A stretch of DNA of 12,071 nt from a virus: UHGV virus genome UHGV-0371921; one strand, written 5' to 3'. Every line of letters begins with the position of its first letter. Position 1 is the first letter of the stretch. Shown here piece after piece: positions 1-12,071 of the stretch. The notes below the pieces were generated by a model. That model did no database searches, was not told the origin of the DNA, and saw nothing but the letters and a program-made list of their open reading frames with translations. Made by a program: the position numbers and the translations under genes.

Positions 1-230
1 AGACTGGAGGCTATGATGGAGAAATTATCAGCAAGGGTGTAGAAGAAATTAATGTGTTGACAAGTGAAAAAGTTTTTGTTATAGTGCATCCAGATTCCAG
101 AGTGAAGCATTACTGGAATGCCAGAACAAAAACTTGGACACCGTTTGCAGATTCTGCTACGCCACTTTTAAACCAGAAAGCTCTTGACTCTGCCCCAAGT
201 TATGGGGTTGTTGAAGAAAAGCTAAACTGA
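1..230 (+). CDS. hypothetical protein, C-terminal fragment (5' end outside window); paralog of the 2037..2432 product
   Basis: Open frame in phase with nt 3 runs from the window edge to TGA 228-230. Tail ...VHPDSRVKHYWNARTKTWTPFADSATPLL aligns by eye with ...RHPHSNIAYYWDVLNNEWTPDLQKATVLTPFL of the 2037..2432 product. Confidence 0.6.
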   Translation, partial: TGGYDGEIISKGVEEINVLTSEKVFVIVHPDSRVKHYWNARTKTWTPFADSATPLLNQKALDSAPSYGVVEEKLN

Positions 231-247
231 AACAGTGAGGTGTCACC

Positions 248-538
248 ATGATGGATTTAATTCTAAATATTGATAACGCAGGAGAGTTTAAAGACGATGG
301 TGTAACAAGCATGGACAAACCCTGCTCTGCTAAGGTTGACTCAAAATGGACCTACAAGTTTGACGGAGAGATCTTCGCAAATGATGAGAAGGTTGTAGAT
401 GCTGCAGCCATTTTAAACGCTCTAGGGTACGACCCTGTGAATTCTTTGATCAAGGATCCTGTTGAGTTTGCAGAGTATGTTCGAAAAATGGCAGATCTTG
501 CTGTGGATATTTTAAAAACTATCGACAACAAGCTGTAA
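248..538 (+). CDS. hypothetical protein (96 aa)
   Basis: ATG 248 with GTGAGG 7 nt upstream; protein-like composition; same strand as neighbours. Confidence 0.65.
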   Translation: MMDLILNIDNAGEFKDDGVTSMDKPCSAKVDSKWTYKFDGEIFANDEKVVDAAAILNALGYDPVNSLIKDPVEFAEYVRKMADLAVDILKTIDNKL

Positions 539-2769: not shown

Positions 2770-3120
2770 ATGAAAGTAGAAATTACTGGTTTTGATGTTA
2801 GTGTGGTTCCGGAAGATATTTTAGCTAACTTACCGGAAGGTTTTGGTAACGGTGTTGTGGTGGATGCTGTTCCTCCTACCAAAGACATTCTGCTGCAGTA
2901 TGGTGTAGCAGAGAAAGATGTCGATAAAGTTCTTACAATGATGGCAATCGATCGTGTTGTCGTTGTTAAAGGTCTCGATAATTTTGAGAGTGATCCTCTG
3001 ATTATTCGCGGAGATGACTACAAAATCATCGATAATGAAGGCCAAGAGTTCTATGAGCCTTGTGCAGAAGATATTCTTAACTTATTACTGGAAGCAGGCA
3101 CCGAAGAGGAGGACGAATAA
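2770..3120 (+). CDS. hypothetical acidic protein (116 aa)
   Basis: ATG follows upstream TAA directly; GAGGTG SD; acidic C-terminus. Confidence 0.7.
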   Translation: MKVEITGFDVSVVPEDILANLPEGFGNGVVVDAVPPTKDILLQYGVAEKDVDKVLTMMAIDRVVVVKGLDNFESDPLIIRGDDYKIIDNEGQEFYEPCAEDILNLLLEAGTEEEDE

Positions 3121-6438: not shown

Positions 6439-6532
6439 CGCACAATTAGCTGCCCGGCCAAAGTGCTGGAAGCGCACCTATAACACATCTTTCAACTAAA
6501 TTTCCCACCACCACAATCACTTACCTTCCACA

Positions 6533-6565
6533 CATGACTGTTTGCTTGTTTAGTGAGCAGTCATG
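6533..6565 (+). other. inverted repeat CATGACTG-N17-CAGTCATG immediately upstream of a promoter
   Basis: 8 bp arms at 6533-6540 and 6558-6565. Confidence 0.4.
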
Positions 6566-6567
6566 CC

Positions 6568-6595
6568 TTGACATTCTTGCCTATCCTGATAAAAT
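6568..6595 (+). promoter_or_regulatory. sigma70-like promoter TTGACA-N16-TAAAAT reading into the ORF-free zone
   Basis: TTGACA 6568-6573, 16 nt spacer, TAAAAT 6590-6595; no ORF with a ribosome binding site follows. Confidence 0.45.
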
Positions 6596-7119
6596 TAAGT
6601 TCTTCTCTTTTCTTTTACCGAGTAATTCGGGTTTTCTGTTCTCTTCGGTTTGAAGGGGTATGGAGATACACCTGAGTGAACAGGGTGAACAACCGAACCA
6701 TTGGCTATGGCATTAGCATGGCGAAGCGGACGGGTGACGAAAGAGGGGCCGGAGGACACCAGTCACTGCCATATGATATATGGGTGATAACCTGAAGAGT
6801 CTGAATAAGTGTTTAAGTACCAGTCAGAGGAAAAGGTGAATGGTAGCCGAAGGGGAGGGGGGTTTCTTGTATCTTTAATTTGTATATTATGTATACACTT
6901 GTAAACCAATCTCATCTGAATCTGTTTACCACACAAAGCGAATAGAGACAAATATTACCTATTAAACTTGAATTATTTATAGAAAATACCGCAACACCAC
7001 TTAAGTCTTTGATTTTACACACAAATCCTACAGATATTCAGCCTCCCTATTTAACATACCTGTAACATATTCCATACTCTACCTGCCTGATCAATTTACC
7101 CAACTACATCCCCATATTT

Positions 7120-7350
7120 TCCCTGTCTGTACTACCCCTGCCCCGCCGGGAGTCCCGTCATATCTGGCTTTCCAGCAAATATCACACCCACAAATATCAT
7201 TGCCTGAAGAGGGTTTCATCCCATAATACATACCTTGCCTGAAGATCGCTTCATACACCACGTAAATTTTTTAATTGACCTGCAATTTCTCCTCAGATAT
7301 CCCCCTGTCCCGCCGGAGAGGTTGTCTTTTCCCACACAGACCTGAAGAGT
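7120..7350. repeat. degenerate ~175 bp duplication carrying CCCTG(C/T)CCCGCCGG and CCTGAAGAG motifs
   Basis: CCCTGCCCCGCCGGGAG at 7134-7150 versus CCCTGTCCCGCCGGAG at 7302-7317; CCTGAAGAG at 7203-7211 and 7341-7349 (also CCTGAAGAT at 7238-7246). Confidence 0.5.
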
Positions 7351-7544
7351 CAGTCAGAAATATCTGAATGGGCCCAGTTCTGCCCTGTCATGAGCGGTAG
7401 CGACTGGAGTGCTGCCAGGCGGACGGAATGGGAATACTTCTCATTCTTATAATAATTCTCAAATATCGAGGCAGTGAGGCAAATTAATAGGTGAGGCCGT
7501 TCACACAGTGGCACAACATTTGCAATCTATTTTGTGAGGGTGAA

Positions 7545-7579
7545 TGAGAATACCTATCATTGTGAGAATCTTTATCATT
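7545..7579. repeat. imperfect tandem repeat TGAGAAT(ACC/CTT)TATCATT x2
   Basis: Copies at 7545-7561 and 7563-7579, 14 of 17 positions identical. Confidence 0.5.
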
Positions 7580-7933
7580 ACGGGCAATTTAACATAATAC
7601 CCATTATGCGCACCACTGGCGATACATACAGGGATTGATAACATAGGTTACTGTTTACGCACATAACAATTATATTTCTTATTATTTGTGGGGGGATATA
7701 GTTAGCAGCCAATAGATTAGATATTGACCTGCAGACTTCTGACCGTCCAGACGTCTAAACGCCCACACAACAAGGATTATACATACAACACTGAATGTAA
7801 ACAGGGCCGCAAAAATGCTACCATACAAGCTTGTAAATTTTTCATGCAGCACTTGACAAAGAGGAGAAAAACTTGTCTGACATAATATGACACTTTAAGC
7901 ACATTAAACACACTGAACATAATTGACATGCAT

Positions 7934-8038
7934 GACTGTTTACGCTGTCACTATTCACGCTATTACTATTCGCTCGCTTACTGTTCATGACCTTTACTGT
8001 TTACATTCCCAATAGTTTACATAGCTTACTGTTAACGT
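7934..8038. repeat. iteron-like cluster of ACTGTTTAC / TTACTGTT direct repeats
   Basis: Exact ACTGTTTAC at 7935-7943 and 7996-8004 (also 7650-7658 and 8472-8480 outside the cluster); variants TTACTGTTCA 7978-7987, TAGTTTACA 8013-8021, TTACTGTTAAC 8026-8036; all in one orientation. Confidence 0.6.
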
Positions 8039-8064
8039 ATAGATTATTTACTCAAAAATGATAA

Positions 8065-8084
8065 GCCATGCCATTCGTTTGCAT
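8065..8084. repeat. 20 bp direct repeat GCCATGCCATTCGTTTGCAT, left copy
   Basis: Identical 20-mer recurs at 8296-8315. Confidence 0.8.
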
Positions 8085-8130
8085 GACAATAATTATACAT
8101 GACAATAATCGCACTGATTATAATTAGCAT

Positions 8131-8282
8131 GACATAATATAAAAGCAGGGCAACTATTAGCAGATCTATAGTTGCCTTGCTTGTTATGTCATGATTAACT
8201 GAATACAAGGCAACTATGATCTGATTAATAGATTGCAGACAAACTATCACGGGGGTGATGGTTACTGCTTTTATATTATGTC
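8131..8282. repeat. 16 bp inverted repeat pair GACATAATATAAAAGC (8131-8146) / GCTTTTATATTATGTC (8267-8282) enclosing the palindrome
   Basis: Exact reverse complements. Confidence 0.75.
8149..8176. repeat. 28 bp palindrome GGCAACTAT-N10-ATAGTTGCC (candidate protein-binding site)
   Basis: 9 bp arms are exact reverse complements; further GGCAACTAT copies at 8209-8217 (direct) and 8314-8322 (inverted); 12-mer CAAGGCAACTAT is shared by the arm at 8168-8179 and the copy at 8206-8217. Confidence 0.75.
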
Positions 8283-8295
8283 GCGACTCCGTCGC

Positions 8296-8315
8296 GCCAT
8301 GCCATTCGTTTGCAT
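8296..8315. repeat. 20 bp direct repeat GCCATGCCATTCGTTTGCAT, right copy
   Basis: Identical to 8065-8084; preceded by small hairpin CGCGAC-TCC-GTCGCG (8282-8296). Confidence 0.8.
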
Positions 8316-8929
8316 AGTTGCCTTATTGTTACAGATAGAATAATTGTATTGTTAATTATTTCTTATCTTTCTATTAGTCATCTAATGATTCCAGTTAGTA
8401 TAGTAACGTACAGTAAACATTAGACGACTAAAGATTTCTCTGCTTATGGTAACCTAACGTGACAATTCCAGACTGTTTACGAAAAATGTTGACACTTGGG
8501 CCGATTTATGTTATGCAGTTTACACGAATAATTATTTTATGCAGGTATTGACTATTCCGTTATTCTATGGTTGGAATAAATGCTTAGCAGGCTATAGAAT
8601 GGCGAGCGTACGTAAATTCTGAGATCTGGCGGCTATAGTTATACTCGATTTTTCACGTAGAAAACGCTTTTGTAGTTATGTAAGTGTATGACTTATAAGA
8701 ATTTTTAGTTGTTGACAAGCTATTGAAGATATGCATCAGGTTAAATTTTGTGCAAATGCTGCATTACGTGCAATTTTGGAAGGAAAAACGTGTAAAAATG
8801 GCCCTGCTACCACACAATGAAAAATTATGCAATAGTTATTTTATATGTATGTTTGTACAGTGGGGTTAATTGCTGGCTTGTTGATTATTCCATTTGCCAG
8901 GCGGGGCCATTTGTGGTAGGAAAAGAGGA

Positions 8930-8958
8930 GACAAAAGAAAGGGGCTTTAAGCCCCTGA
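8930..8958 (-). terminator. intrinsic terminator of the leftward gene block (minus RNA: AGGGGCU-UAA-AGCCCCU then UUUCUUUUGUC)
   Basis: 7 bp stem plus U tract on the minus strand, just downstream of the last minus-strand stop codons (8976 / 8987). Confidence 0.7.
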
Positions 8959-8975
8959 CCGTGCACCTTGTTGTA

Positions 8976-9110
8976 TTATTTGTTGCTCATCCAGTTTTCC
9001 CAAGCTGCCTGATAATCTGCCTCACTACGGCGGATCTCTTCTTGCTCTTCAAGGCGGATCTCTTCTTCCAGGTACCCCAAGATGTCAGCCTTTTTGGTCT
9101 GGCGTAACAT
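8976..9110 (-). CDS. alternative -1 frame ORF (44 aa, MLRQTKKADILGYLEEEIRLEEQEEIRRSEADYQAAWENWMSNK), possibly the true C-terminal part of the 9238 gene
   Basis: Protein-like acidic sequence with EEEIR repeat; no strong SD of its own; fully overlapped by the track ORF in another frame. Confidence 0.3.
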   Translation of the reverse strand: MLRQTKKADILGYLEEEIRLEEQEEIRRSEADYQAAWENWMSNK

Positions 9111-9238
9111 CCAATCATCTTTTTACGAGTGAAGATCTTATAAGCTTTCTCGCAAACCTCTTTTTTGCTACCTTTCTGGACTTCAAGAATTCTGTAGGCC
9201 ATGTACTGAACTAATTTAAGCTGATCCAGACGTTTCAT
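8987..9238 (-). CDS. hypothetical protein; 3' half likely out of frame (see frameshift finding)
   Basis: ATG 9238 with AAAGAGGA 7 nt upstream; N-terminal 40 aa protein-like, but residues after about 40 are Lys/Arg/Ser/Trp-rich, typical of out-of-frame translation. Confidence 0.4.
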   Translation of the reverse strand: MKRLDQLKLVQYMAYRILEVQKGSKKEVCEKAYKIFTRKKMIGCYARPKRLTSWGTWKKRSALKSKKRSAVVRQIIRQLGKTG

Positions 9239-9315
9239 GATGTTTCCTCTTTATGTGGTTCGTTTTGATTAGTTGATAATACAGCAGTTCGCAGATCAGT
9301 CTTTAGCAATTCATG

Positions 9316-9534
9316 CTATTTACTCACAACGGTGTCGAAAACAAATTTTTCTTTATTGTCTAAACTCACGTATCCGATTCGACCACGCAAGCCGCAAGTA
9401 GTGCCGTACTCGTAACCATTAAGGCCTTTAACCTTCCAATCCGTACCCATTAAAACCGCATTATATTCCTGACCAACTACAAAAGCGCCCCCAGTCGATT
9501 CAATGCAAACAACTTTAATTTTACGGGTTGTCAT
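9316..9534 (-). CDS. hypothetical protein (72 aa)
   Basis: ATG 9534 with AAGAGAG upstream in a CCACACAAAGAGAG leader. Confidence 0.65.
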   Translation of the reverse strand: MTTRKIKVVCIESTGGAFVVGQEYNAVLMGTDWKVKGLNGYEYGTTCGLRGRIGYVSLDNKEKFVFDTVVSK

Positions 9535-9566
9535 TTTCTTTCTCTCTTTGTGTGGTTCTGATTAGT

Positions 9567-9580
9567 GGGCCTTTTGGCCC
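9567..9580 (-). other. GC-rich stem-loop in 5' leader (GGGCC-AAAA-GGCCC on minus RNA)
   Basis: Perfect 5 bp stem; lies between a candidate promoter and the SD of the 9316..9534 gene. Confidence 0.5.
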
Positions 9581-9588
9581 GTGTCATT

Positions 9589-9617
9589 ATCTTATTACTT
9601 ATGGCGGCAGAATTCAA
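9589..9617 (-). promoter_or_regulatory. candidate sigma70-like promoter TTGAAT-N17-TAAGAT (minus strand)
   Basis: Minus-strand -35 at 9617-9612 and -10 at 9594-9589; overlaps the 3' end of the upstream gene. Confidence 0.3.
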
Positions 9618-9867
9618 GTGTTTTTAATTGATAATCTTCCTCAGCCTGGAGTACGACCGCCTCGATCATTTCGTTGGCATTGTTAAAGCCATAACCTTTA
9701 GCGAACTCATCCGCGCCACCTTCGTGATCATGTTCTGCGTTCATCGCTTCCACAAAATGGAATTCCAAATTGTTGAGGTAGGGGCTTGATGTGCCGTCTT
9801 CTTTTTCGATGAGATCCCAAATAGCATTAAAACGTGATTCGACTTCTTGATTAATCCAGCTTGACAT
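9595..9867 (-). CDS. hypothetical acidic protein (90 aa)
   Basis: ATG 9867 with AGGAGAGAGG upstream. Confidence 0.65.
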   Translation of the reverse strand: MSSWINQEVESRFNAIWDLIEKEDGTSSPYLNNLEFHFVEAMNAEHDHEGGADEFAKGYGFNNANEMIEAVVLQAEEDYQLKTLEFCRHK

Positions 9868-9896
9868 AGTGTTTTCCTCTCTCCTGGTTATTGTGT

Positions 9897-9910
9897 GGGC
9901 ACTTTTGCCC
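9897..9910 (-). other. GC-rich stem-loop in 5' leader (GGGCA-AAAG-TGCCC on minus RNA)
   Basis: Directly downstream of the -10 of the 9922-9950 promoter and upstream of the SD. Confidence 0.5.
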
Positions 9911-9921
9911 CTTCAAGATAA

Positions 9922-9950
9922 ATGTTACCCCACCCCATGGCAGATGTCAA
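9922..9950 (-). promoter_or_regulatory. sigma70-like promoter TTGACA-N17-TAACAT (minus strand)
   Basis: Minus-strand TTGACA at 9950-9945, 17 nt spacer, TAACAT at 9927-9922; in a 210 bp intergenic gap. Confidence 0.45.
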
Positions 9951-10036
9951 CGGTTTTTATAGTTCTTATATGACAGGCAGGCCCGGTGATTGTCTCCACC
10001 CGTCGCCAGGTGCCTGCCGTGAAACAAGTATAACAA

Positions 10037-10064
10037 AAAACAGGACCATTGCAAGCCCTGTTTT
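10037..10064 (-). terminator. candidate intrinsic terminator (minus RNA: AAAACAGG...CCUGUUUU running into a U6 tract)
   Basis: Inverted repeat 10037-10044 / 10057-10064 with 12 nt loop; U tract on the minus strand; immediately after the stop of the 10079..10270 gene. Confidence 0.4.
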
Positions 10065-10078
10065 GTAGTTTATAAGGA

Positions 10079-10270
10079 TTATATTTTTTCGCCTATGTAG
10101 TCCGGTCGGTTTTTCTCTGTCATGCGCTTGAGCAATTCTTGCATGTTGCTTATGGCTTGCAGTGTATCCCCTTCCAGACTTGAATCAACATAATCAGGAT
10201 CGTCTATAACCTTTCTATGATTATGATAACGCAGTACCGCCAATACCTTTCTAACTTGTTCGATATTCAT
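10079..10270 (-). CDS. hypothetical protein (63 aa)
   Basis: ATG 10270; weak SD AAAGAGCG; protein-like sequence. Confidence 0.6.
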   Translation of the reverse strand: MNIEQVRKVLAVLRYHNHRKVIDDPDYVDSSLEGDTLQAISNMQELLKRMTEKNRPDYIGEKI

Positions 10271-10281
10271 TTTATCGCTCT

Positions 10282-10416
10282 TTAAAACAAGGTGCCAACC
10301 GTTCCCAATAGATCACTGACTACCAGGACAATACTGATTAGCACATACCTAACCATAAGGGGAAAGAGCGCCAGCGATCCAGCCACAATCCCCAAGGTGA
10401 TGATTATCTTTCTCAT
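10282..10416 (-). CDS. small hydrophobic protein (44 aa), two predicted transmembrane segments
   Basis: ATG 10416 lies 2 nt after the upstream stop (translational coupling); no clear SD; below track cutoff. Confidence 0.4.
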   Translation of the reverse strand: MRKIIITLGIVAGSLALFPLMVRYVLISIVLVVSDLLGTVGTLF

Positions 10417-10418
10417 GG

Positions 10419-10703
10419 TTAACGGTTTACGTAAGCTTTACCGTTTACGGTGATGGGCAGATCTTCCAGGTCTGGATCTTCCTTAAGGTCGCGAGCAAGC
10501 TCACCGCACCGGATACCCTCGAATCCGTAGTACTCTGTTGTGCCGTCATTAAAAGTTTTAGCGGCAAGGCATAAGCGATAAGTAACCCCGATTTGATTGA
10601 CGGCATGGATATCCGTTAGATTAACCTCTTTTGCCAGCTCTTTAGCCATTACAGGCGCATTAAGTCCAACAACCAGGGCAACTACTGCGATCATCTTTTT
10701 CAT
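10419..10703 (-). CDS. small secreted or periplasmic protein with N-terminal signal peptide (94 aa, two Cys)
   Basis: ATG 10703 with AAGAGG 9 nt upstream; MKKMIAVVALVVGLNAPVMA-KEL has positive n-region, hydrophobic core and AxA-like cleavage motif. Confidence 0.7.
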   Translation of the reverse strand: MKKMIAVVALVVGLNAPVMAKELAKEVNLTDIHAVNQIGVTYRLCLAAKTFNDGTTEYYGFEGIRCGELARDLKEDPDLEDLPITVNGKAYVNR

Positions 10704-10731
10704 TGTGTCTAGCCTCTTTCTGCTACGTTTA

Positions 10732-10749
10732 AGGCGGCGGTAACCGCCT
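10732..10749 (-). other. GC-rich stem-loop in 5' leader (AGGCGG / CCGCCT, 6 nt loop)
   Basis: Perfect 6 bp inverted repeat upstream of the SD of the signal-peptide gene. Confidence 0.45.
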
Positions 10750-10794
10750 GTTTATGATTTATTGGTTAATTTTCAGGTATCGCTATAAATTAAA

Positions 10795-11010
10795 CTATGC
10801 TGTACGCTCAACTATAACAACGGTTTGCGGGATCTCACCTTCCACCACTATCAAGGCCTTTTTCTGCGTGATGGATATCTTTACCCGTTGCAGCGTGGCG
10901 GTGAAGTCTTTCATTTCGTCACGTGGTGTTTTAGTGCAATGCCAGATCTCTGGCTTGCCGATCTGCAAGCCTCGCAAGAATTCCGTTTTACCTGTCTTAT
11001 TCGTGATCAT
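10795..11010 (-). CDS. hypothetical protein (71 aa from ATG 11010; track extends to ATG 11034)
   Basis: ATG 11010 has AAGGTG 6 nt upstream, whereas ATG 11034 has no SD; more protein-like than the two overlapping plus-strand ORFs. Confidence 0.5.
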   Translation of the reverse strand: MITNKTGKTEFLRGLQIGKPEIWHCTKTPRDEMKDFTATLQRVKISITQKKALIVVEGEIPQTVVIVERTA

Positions 11011-11020
11011 TTGATTCACC

Positions 11021-11125
11021 TTAACCGATACCATGGGAAGATAGGATCATGTTAGCCATAGTTGCAACCACTCCAACCGATAATGCCAGGCCAACTACTA
11101 CAACCGTGAAAATTTTATCTAACAT
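11021..11125 (-). CDS. small hydrophobic peptide (34 aa, MLDKIFTVVVVGLALSVGVVATMANMILSSHGIG)
   Basis: ATG 11125 with GAGGG about 7 nt upstream; single hydrophobic helix; below track cutoff. Confidence 0.35.
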   Translation of the reverse strand: MLDKIFTVVVVGLALSVGVVATMANMILSSHGIG

Positions 11126-11144
11126 GATTCTACCCTCATTAATG

Positions 11145-11161
11145 GCGGGAAGTATTCCCGC
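11145..11161 (-). other. stem-loop GCGGGAA-GTA-TTCCCGC (7 bp stem, 3 nt loop)
   Basis: Perfect palindrome just upstream of the SD of the 11021..11125 peptide. Confidence 0.45.
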
Positions 11162-11207
11162 GCTATGTAGTACACTTTACCAGATTGTTGACTGTTGTCA
11201 AACTATT

Positions 11208-11387
11208 TTAACGATAATCATCATATGCTTTATTGACCTGGCGAATATAACATTCAAAAGCTAGATCAATAGATTTATATTCACGGATATATTCACCATA
11301 GGAAACCACATACATTTCTATAGCTTCCTCATATGCGAGAAGAATAGAATCTAAGCCTACGATCTCAGTCTTTGCAATAATAGCCAT
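11208..11387 (-). CDS. hypothetical acidic protein (59 aa, MAIIAKTEIVGLDSILLAYEEAIEMYVVSYGEYIREYKSIDLAFECYIRQVNKAYDDYR)
   Basis: ATG 11387 with AAAGAGGA upstream in a CCACAAAGAGGA leader; shares the MAI start context with the 12036 gene; missing from track because below 60 aa. Confidence 0.5.
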   Translation of the reverse strand: MAIIAKTEIVGLDSILLAYEEAIEMYVVSYGEYIREYKSIDLAFECYIRQVNKAYDDYR

Positions 11388-11413
11388 GATTTTTTATCCT
11401 CTTTGTGGTTGGT

Positions 11414-11428
11414 GGGGCTTGTTGCCCC
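11414..11428 (-). other. GC-rich stem-loop in 5' leader (GGGGC-AACAA-GCCCC on minus RNA)
   Basis: Perfect 5 bp stem upstream of the SD of the 11208..11387 gene. Confidence 0.5.
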
Positions 11429-11463
11429 CTTTGATTTATATACTACAGTCTTATATGGTCATG

Positions 11464-11697
11464 TCAACTATTTTCAAAAAATTTTTCTGCTGTGATATTT
11501 TTCCCGGTAGGGTTCGCTACTTTCAAAATTTTATCATGCACTGGACGCCCAAAAGAATAAGATCCGTATACAGTAAACCAATAATCGCCGTCAGGTTGTA
11601 CTATTACCGCCGCATATGGTACGCCTTTTTCGTTTTTGCTGACAAAATAGATCACATTGCCATTAATAGCCTCAGCGCGTTTAATTTGTTCCATCAT
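11464..11697 (-). CDS. hypothetical protein (77 aa)
   Basis: ATG 11697 with AGAGAGG upstream. Confidence 0.6.
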   Translation of the reverse strand: MMEQIKRAEAINGNVIYFVSKNEKGVPYAAVIVQPDGDYWFTVYGSYSFGRPVHDKILKVANPTGKNITAEKFFENS

Positions 11698-11727
11698 GAT
11701 GATTTACCTCTCTTTATTTTCATAATT

Positions 11728-11744
11728 GGGGCCTTTTCGGCCCC
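11728..11744 (-). other. GC-rich stem-loop (GGGGCC-GAAAA-GGCCCC on minus RNA)
   Basis: Perfect 6 bp GC stem between the stop of the 11752 gene and the SD of the 11697 gene. Confidence 0.5.
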
Positions 11745-11751
11745 GCCAGGT

Positions 11752-12036
11752 TTATTTATTGATAGCGTGCAGCGGGAAAGGTACGCCAGGTTGATAGATA
11801 ACTTTTACAACCTCATCAGGGCAAAAGAAATTGCAGAATTCACCCTGATAAGCCTCATCCTCTTTCAATTCTTCATCAACATACTCAAAAAAGTAGTCGA
11901 TGCTTGGATAATCCTGGCCGGGATTATAGTCTACCATCGTTAATAACAATTCTTGATCATTCCGTAGGATATGCATACCCGCTTTTAAGTATTTTGCTTC
12001 CATTTCCACTACATCGCCAACGGTGACAATAGCCAT
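11752..12036 (-). CDS. hypothetical acidic protein (94 aa)
   Basis: ATG 12036 with AGGAG about 8 nt upstream; protein-like; the overlapping 185 aa plus-strand ORF looks like an antisense artefact. Confidence 0.65.
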   Translation of the reverse strand: MAIVTVGDVVEMEAKYLKAGMHILRNDQELLLTMVDYNPGQDYPSIDYFFEYVDEELKEDEAYQGEFCNFFCPDEVVKVIYQPGVPFPLHAINK

Positions 12037-12071
12037 GATTTTAACTCCTATCTATCCACGCACTCGTCTGA

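Follow-up and report, generated by a model that had tools for sequence, protein, structure and literature searches.

A gene-free gap that holds the physical genome ends

The stretch of UHGV virus genome UHGV-0371921 analysed here (12,071 nucleotides; hereafter the window) belongs to a Vequintavirus (rV5-like) coliphage, with 95-97% identity to many isolates and the genome type of a virulent myovirus. A + strand gene block and a - strand gene block converge on a gene-free gap of about 2.5 kb (window ~6439-8986), and a cluster of direct and inverted repeats in this gap is the subject of the present analysis. The initial annotation had described the cluster as a candidate protein-binding site in a zone free of open reading frames (ORFs) between converging gene blocks. 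That setting is correct: the zone is the box drawn as 'non-coding' on the rV5 map, where the rV5 authors expected bidirectional terminators and found none (PMC3606486).

The gap contains the physical ends of the genome. A 458-bp terminal redundancy was reported by Korf 2019, and three independent records that begin at the physical end (EdH4, Gotham and YN3) carry exact repeats of 458-459 bp at both record ends, annotated in the Gotham record as repeat_region 1..459. These repeats map to one collapsed copy of the direct terminal repeat (DTR) in the window, indicating that the source contig spans the genome junction; the IMG/VR contig IMGVR_UViG_2051223002_000007 is identical to the window across the compared region. 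The repeat cluster lies in unique sequence, 188-445 bp inward of the left genome end, with its core about 250 bp inboard of the DTR, and it adjoins an AT-rich stretch (GC 0.33-0.35 at 8000-8800). The suspected link to the genome end or to packaging is borne out as regards position, because the physical left end lies 188 bp upstream; no fixed spacing accompanies it, since members of the genus have between 114 and 347 bp separating the DTR and the left arm of the inverted repeat. The concern that the cluster might be an artefact of a collapsed junction can be set aside, because the locus lies outside the collapsed DTR and is identical in records starting at the physical end.

Anatomy of the repeat locus

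The perfect 20-bp direct repeat GCCATGCCATTCGTTTGCAT occurs at both of the places first assigned to it (Table 1). The inverted repeat is perfect, as proposed, and is 18 bp long rather than 16 bp. The feature described as a 28-bp palindrome was correctly located and consists of two 9-bp arms around a 10-nt spacer, extendable to 15-bp arms (8143-8157 / 8168-8182) with one G.T pair. The 9-mer GGCAACTAT is present in four copies, at 8149(+), 8168(-), 8209(+) and 8314(-), the last two being the further copies already noticed, and the CGCGAC-TCC-GTCGCG hairpin is also present. This density of repeats does exceed chance: four copies of GGCAACTAT compare with 0.14 expected, and none of 200 shuffles reaches four. 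The 20-mer, the 18-mer and GGCAACTAT are absent elsewhere in the 12-kb window and from 50 kb of a related genome. The repeats are thus local, and the scatter through the genome that the initial annotation had named as evidence against a specific site is not seen.

Table 1. Features of the genome-end gap in the window and coordinates of the sister-genus element
Feature	Position	Strand	Basis or remark
DTR, one collapsed copy; physical genome ends	7418-7877		End repeats of EdH4, Gotham and YN3 map here
Conserved DTR right-end motif CTTGACAAAGAGGAGAAAAACTTGTC	7852-7877	+	Similar motif ends the DTR in sister genera
Hypervariable spacer with short repeats and left 20-mer	7878-8125		34-76% identity per 40-bp bin, many indels
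Promoter-like composite TTGACA-N12-TACGC	7923-7945	+	185 bp before left arm
20-bp direct repeat, left copy	8065-8084	+	Kept in 13/15 relatives, distance to core variable
Near-invariant core block	8126-8335	+	97-99% identity among carriers
Left arm of perfect 18-bp inverted repeat, A-rich on + strand	8131-8148	+	Outer part GACATAAT resembles sister-genus GACACAAT
Palindromic hairpin with GGCAACTAT copies 1 and 2; followed on - strand by UUUUAUAUUAU	8143-8182		Folding
GGCAACTAT copy 3	8206-8218	+	Perfectly complementary to copy 2 (8168-8179) and copy 4 (8313-8324)
+ strand hairpin, GCAG...CUGC around AACUAUCAC-GGGG-GUGAUGGUU	8235-8268	+	Folding; terminator scan matched core 8242-8263
Right arm of 18-bp inverted repeat; 8269-8279 is U-tract UUUUAUAUUAU past the + strand hairpin	8265-8282	+	Repeat and terminator scans, folding
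CGCGAC-UCC-GUCGCG hairpin; with arm end reads TGTCGC...TCGCGCCA as in sister genera	8282-8296	+	Folding, comparison
20-bp direct repeat, right copy	8296-8315	+	Sequence repeat
GGCAACTAT copy 4, CATAGTTGCCTT	8313-8324	-	Sequence repeat
Two TTGACA-N12/17-TATGC motifs in AT-rich stretch	8489-8516, 8712-8734	+	Past element
Intrinsic terminator closing - strand gene block	8940-8956	-	Terminator scan; EdH4 annotation
Sister-genus element, 205-250 nt	L019 (KPP-1) 2839-3044; L020 4173-4391; L021 4174-4396; L022 4206-4453		Multi-helix

Folding of the 221-nt core gives z = -8.4 to -11.2 relative to shuffles, and 8127-8287 as a whole forms a long imperfect hairpin. The outer 18-bp helix encloses hairpins built from GGCAACTAT copies and a G-loop hairpin; the GC hairpin and the repeated 20-mer follow. 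The palindrome, labelled a terminator by the Murica annotators, reaches -22.6 kcal/mol (z -5.5) on the + strand and -24.8 kcal/mol (z -6.1) on the - strand with its tail. The hairpin at 8235-8268 folds on the + strand only (-17.1 kcal/mol, z -4.1, versus -6.2, z -0.2, for its - strand mirror). As the four GGCAACTAT copies alternate in orientation (+ - + -), alternative folds are possible through 1:2, 2:3 and 3:4 pairings. Both wobble pairs of the window element (8148/8177 and 8245/8260) are G.T on the + strand.

Conservation among vequintaviruses

Alignments were compared for 15, then 18 relatives. The core block, at 97-99% identity among carriers, is more conserved than the DTR itself (92-97%), and a 170-bp core is found at at least 95% identity in 118 of 120 vequintavirus records, always as a single copy of constant orientation. 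On either side, the DTR is flanked by hypervariable, indel-rich DNA (7250-7410 on the left, 7890-8125 on the right), and short repeats of the right flank vary in copy number (9-bp ACACATTAA, 15-bp TGTTTAC/TATTCAC units, and CATGACAATAAT x2; TRF); TGTTTAC occurs seven times in this spacer against 2.1 expected. Substitutions in the core are confined to the palindrome loop, the spacer of GGCAACTAT copies 2 and 3, a decayed region at 8225-8240 and the G-loop, so that the GGCAACTAT copies and other repeats never change while the spacers between them do. The spacer of copies 2 and 3 also receives a 33-bp insertion, TTAACATCCTCGAGACGAAGGCTATGCCTGAGT, at window 8186 in rV5 and A112b, and an extra hairpin with a UUCG-type loop stands just before the left arm in rV5, Murica, V18 and A112b. 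Phage FV3 (NC_019517, L010 1283-1320) retains one 20-mer and is missing precisely the 231 bp that separate the two copies elsewhere, which may reflect a clean deletion by direct-repeat recombination or possibly an assembly or cloning loss of long palindromes.

Invariant repeats set between variable spacers could betray an array of protein-binding sites, either a dimer operator of the form GGCAACTAT-N10-ATAGTTGCC with weaker copies around it, or 18-mers serving as paired sites for a terminase (cosB/pac-like) or an initiator. The half-site geometry is operator-like, the packaging cut is near, and TGACATAATAT recurs directly past the DTR end, at 7878. However, the cut site lies at no constant distance, FV3 can do without the element, rV5 and A112b tolerate 33 extra bp between copies 2 and 3, and a Pfam search of ten neighbouring small ORFs found no domains, whether DNA-binding, Rep or Par. 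In the sister genera described below, moreover, changes in the arms and hairpins preserve pairing and not sequence. An array of this kind is quite unlikely.

The presence/absence polymorphism bounded by the 20-bp direct repeat, the perfect terminal inverted repeats and the collapsed DTR in the window would also be expected of a mobile foldback element (similar to a miniature inverted-repeat transposable element, MITE), an invertible switch or an assembly artefact. Such an origin is highly improbable: the element is single-copy, with a fixed locus and orientation in 118 records, the 20-mers do not abut the arms, and the locus lies outside the DTR and is unchanged in end-anchored records. No copies were found in E. 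coli chromosomes, the sole 'plasmid' match being a phage genome. An inverton was rejected at the level of records, all 118 of 118 being collinear over the segment in one orientation.

A covarying counterpart in sister genera

Klebsiella phage KPP-1 (Mydovirus) carries its DTR in the same kind of convergent gap; this DTR is 514 bp long and its ends were called T7-type by PhageTerm. It ends in CTTGACAAGGAGAGAGAATTGTG, where the window has CTTGACAAAGAGGAGAAAAACTTGTC, and about 310 bp further in stands an inverted repeat whose two perfect 21-bp arms are separated by 164 nt. Further loci, located with the conserved first gene as anchor, contain arms of 18-20 bp, 183 nt apart, in PVP-SE1 and EspYZU14 (Seunavirus) and arms of 22 bp, 204 nt apart and 260 bp from the annotated DTR, in Hena1 (Henunavirus). 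A CTTGACA..GAG..TTGTG-like motif ends the DTR in nine sister-genus loci, 234-405 bp ahead of the element.

A scan of viral contigs with an invariant inner motif brought the set for a sister alignment to nine distinct sequences. The consensus structure comprises 58 pairs with 98.3% of cells paired. Both sides have changed in 16 pairs, compared with 5.1 +/- 1.5 under shuffling (0/500) and 1-4 when the registers are slid, and compensatory changes are seen in 10 of 19 pairs in the outer arms and in 5 of 11 in one hairpin. Since pairing is preserved by compensatory changes, the sister repeats are kept because they pair. Where the supported helices contain wobbles, these read G.U on the equivalent of the + strand (three columns, 12 cells), versus one A.C. 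The junction sequences (GTGTTATCGTGGCG / GCCACGATAACGCGAACGA) are invariant and occur once more past the element, which is followed by a GC stem and UUUUUAUUU. The sister element is itself a candidate for a new family of structured RNA or DNA. Its hairpin TGATAAGGATTATCA could be taken for a Fur box, a reading discarded because this hairpin changes in sequence with compensation.

The sister and window elements share their position between the DTR and the first - strand gene, a single perfect long-range arm pair, a hairpin just inside each arm, and a direct repeat after the tail. The outer halves of the right arms, TTATTGTGTCGC in the sister element and ATATTATGTCGC in the window, agree at 10 of 12 positions, and the tail TCGCGCCA past the right arm is identical (8/8). 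The single arm difference in the shared part, a right-arm G to A (C:G to T:A), is matched by a left-arm C to T. In contrast, the inner helices and junctions are unrelated, and the sister element is larger (205-250 nt versus about 150). Two candidate bridging lineages, PD06 and KP13-26, were discarded as members of another subfamily with non-syntenic loci, and baiting of IMG/VR with the invariant 20-mer returned near-identical copies only and no bridging form. The window element is read here as either homologous to the sister element but diverged, or closely analogous to it in function, and the inference of pairing is carried over to it with that caveat.

A tentative structured RNA at the genome end

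The repeats of the window are probably the paired strands of a single fold-back element and not independent sites: the repeats of the sister counterpart co-vary to keep pairing, which points to a folded strand rather than to separate protein sites. The favoured, still tentative, reading of the element is a structured + strand RNA or terminator domain at the genome end, the + strand being suggested by a handful of wobble positions. The + strand would be transcribed inward from the genome end, from candidate TTGACA...TAYGC motifs; the palindrome would form, followed by the 8235-8268 hairpin, and transcription would halt in the U-tract at 8269-8279. The A-rich left arm would then pair with the U-rich 3' end, closing a compact, nuclease-resistant RNA. 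On the - strand, the palindrome and the same U-rich sequence would provide a mirror-image stop. With stops on both strands, the element would also insulate the converging gene blocks and the genome (concatemer) junction.

Several signals in the gap bear on transcription. TTGACA occurs five times on the + strand of the gap and never on its - strand. The composite TTGACA-N11-18-TAYGC is found three times against 0.13 expected (0/200 shuffles), always on the + strand and within the gap, and KPP-1 has the same composite 116 bp before and 46 bp after its element (L019 2699-2723 and 3090-3112). This composite may be a phage-specific promoter or binding site. Terminator-type modules are present on both strands, the 8235-8268 hairpin with its U-tract (8269-8279) on the + strand and the palindrome, read from 8182 to 8143, with a U-tract on the - strand; each 18-bp arm doubles as the U-tract of an inward-facing terminator-like module on its own strand.

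These modules could be all that the element comprises, that is, two face-to-face intrinsic terminators that stop the converging blocks, the inverted repeat existing because both strands use the same CUGC-UUUUAUAUUAU module. A hairpin and U-tract on each strand, the Murica annotation and a location where bidirectional terminators were predicted but not found (PMC3606486) agree with this explanation. However, the - strand block already has a strong terminator at 8940-8956, the arms of the sister genera are poor U-tracts, and terminators would leave unexplained why whole arms are perfectly complementary and co-evolve in five lineages, why the 20-mer repeat, copies 3 and 4 of GGCAACTAT and the invariant GC hairpin exist, and why conservation exceeds that of neighbouring DNA. 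Terminators alone are therefore an unlikely account of the locus.

A number of observations weigh against the structured RNA. A promoter scan found no canonical sigma-70 promoter upstream of the element; the composite motifs have spacings of mostly 12-14 nt, unlike sigma-70 promoters; the motif at 7923 is absent from many relatives; and rV5-type phages have a terminator-like hairpin immediately ahead of the left arm. The minimum free energy of the whole element shows no consistent strand preference, the two strands folding about equally, and was dropped as evidence. The helices are invariant within the genus, so the window lineage offers no covariation of its own, and the poor U-tracts of the sister arms count here as well. 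A covariance model of the sister element (R1) does not detect the window element, its best window match (E=0.51, 8334-8415) lying outside it, so that membership of the window element in the sister family is not demonstrated. A covariance scan of the window and three sister loci with Rfam 15 gave no relevant match at E<=1, and the searched literature contained no transcriptome or functional study of the gap region in any vequintavirus. Perfect helices of 18-22 bp are, in addition, unusual in functional RNAs and would be RNase III substrates.

A broader proposal, which must be considered doubtful, is that the window and sister elements together represent an undescribed, Vequintavirinae-wide family of structured non-coding RNAs, located at the leading genome end without protein genes in the same direction and having a dedicated role. 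If such a family exists, its members could serve in early host takeover, act against defence systems, or assist packaging or replication in the manner of phi29 pRNA or ColE1 RNA II.

A DNA structure as the alternative

The element could instead operate as DNA, folding back in cis on unwinding or strand displacement during regeneration of the DTR at concatemer junctions, at the start of packaging, or in replisome priming or loading. The 'hairpin end' intermediate of T7, plasmid single-strand origins and primosome assembly sites are analogues of such a structure, and the T7 case provides a precedent in the literature. Across four to five genera, Vequintavirus included, the element keeps to one side of the DTR, some hundreds of bp into the genome; an AT-rich stretch follows it; both DTR flanks are rich in indels and carry arrays of short repeats, comparable to SRL and SRR at the T7 terminal repeat; and PhageTerm assigned the KPP-1 ends to the T7 type. 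Long perfect arms are more typical of DNA-level inverted repeats, and the near-equal folding of both strands is also what a DNA structure would show. However, the distance from the DTR is variable (114-405 bp) and FV3, a described and viable phage, is without the element, which together weigh against an essential role in end processing. The T7 inverted repeat lies on the other side of the junction, and no DnaA box (TTWTNCACA) was found in 7100-12071. The wobble bias also favours the + strand, which would be the leading-strand template for forks heading to this end and not the 3' overhang strand. A DNA-level role is the leading alternative, though an improbable one, and the structured + strand RNA remains the favoured reading.

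Other features of the gap and its records

A near-consensus sigma-70 promoter (TTGACA-16-TAAAAT with TG, 11/12) lies on the + strand of the gap within 6568-6630, and a small hairpin with a T-run (6618-6630) follows about 25 nt past it; the pair may give rise to a regulatory leader or to a transcript of very small size. Within the DTR, short (A/G)TGAGAAT motifs are repeated both in Vequintavirus (window 7455-7569) and in KPP-1 (L019 2414-2467). Their count in the window is not above chance (4 versus 2.8), and their shared location might mark a site for terminase or another end-binding protein. A tRNA scan of the window found none.

At the gap edge (8939-8958) the window, EdH4 and nomo lack a gene of about 540 bp including flanks (rV5 gp159, 139 aa), which stands directly after the - strand terminator in rV5, Murica, YN3, isim and others and is thus a presence/absence polymorphism. 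MiataMamis and other records annotate strings of tiny ORFs over the non-coding gap. One of these, a 68-aa ORF at 8044-8250(-) annotated in MiataMamis, is not coding, as indels break it in relatives and it has no Pfam hit. The labels 'DNA translocase FtsK' and 'transcriptional regulator' on neighbours of the gap were likewise dismissed for want of Pfam support, and those on 8987-9238(-) and its neighbours, in some records including 'sigma 54 modulation factor', are copied from record to record without Pfam support in the ten ORFs tested.

Between 18 and 24 UNVERIFIED 'Campylobacter phage' records (MG0656xx) are ordinary vequintaviruses, which makes their host labels doubtful, and the 137.5-kb 'non-mobilizable plasmid' CP057073.1 of PLSDB, from an E. 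coli culture, is a vequintavirus genome.

Significance

Phages of the rV5 type are widely isolated and are used in biocontrol of E. coli O157 and in phage-therapy collections, and the 2.5-kb 'non-coding' region of their genomes has remained an empty box since 2013. Both the gap and the DTR had been known before. What is new relative to the searched papers and Rfam is the near-invariant element, together with its link to the genome end and its covarying sister counterpart; the gap holds the physical genome ends and, adjacent to them, a near-invariant fold-back element, which has a counterpart supported by covariation in sister genera. The element offers a testable handle on convergent termination, end processing or the start of replication, and may reveal a new phage RNA. 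For phage engineering, the locus is deletion-prone through its 20-bp repeats, as in FV3, and is a candidate insertion point, safe or unsafe. Annotators currently place spurious small ORFs across it.

Comparison with known systems

The initial annotation likened the locus to iteron or operator arrays bound by replication initiators, to centromeres bound by ParB/ParR-type proteins and to the sites of terminase small subunits. An iteron origin has at least three phased repeats of ~17-22 bp in the same orientation, with an adjacent initiator gene or DnaA boxes. Here only two 20-mers occur, 231 bp apart, the 9-mers alternate in orientation, and neither DnaA boxes nor Rep or other DNA-binding domains in the neighbours accompany them; the AT-rich region beside the repeats is the one trait in common. 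ParB/parS and ParR/parC systems do not match either: the genome is that of a virulent myovirus, the neighbours encode no partition domains and the locus has no tandem array. A MITE or foldback transposon would have dispersed copies and abutting target duplications, and the element has neither.

The terminase arrays of lambda (the R sites of cosB), P1 (pac) and SPP1 (pacL/pacR) likewise comprise several short, partly inverted sites near the cut, and the locus lies 188-445 bp from the DTR boundary. However, a terminase site would have fixed spacing and be indispensable, whereas here the spacing is loose (114-347 bp), the element is absent from FV3 as assembled, and the repeats of the sister genera co-vary to keep pairing.

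Like the present locus, the T7 junction combines a short, exact DTR with short-repeat arrays on its inner side and an inverted repeat nearby. Work by Chung, Nardone and Hinkle in 1990 reportedly described a T7 inverted repeat near the concatemer junction that gives a 'hairpin end', with which the predicted fold of the present element is compared. The T7 repeat differs in flanking the junction on the side of the right end, T7 relies on an RNA polymerase of its own, and the sequences are unrelated. The injection-stop region of T5 is also a long non-coding stretch, rich in repeats and palindromes and tied to a terminal repeat, but it borders a 10-kb repeat full of pre-early genes, whereas the DTR here is 460 bp and gene-free.

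Among RNAs, 6S RNA and Y RNA have a helix that closes the 5' and 3' ends and several hairpins, with the conserved unpaired junctions of the sister genera as a further parallel, and phi29 pRNA is encoded at the left genome end, similarly beside a genome end. The putative RNA of the element differs from all three in sequence and architecture and has no Rfam match. Bidirectional terminators are alike in having a hairpin and U-tract for each strand, complementary A- and U-tracts and a location between convergent genes. Unlike plain terminators, however, the element places two hairpins about 90 nt apart within an 18-bp helix, carries additional conserved parts and is conserved far beyond what termination needs.

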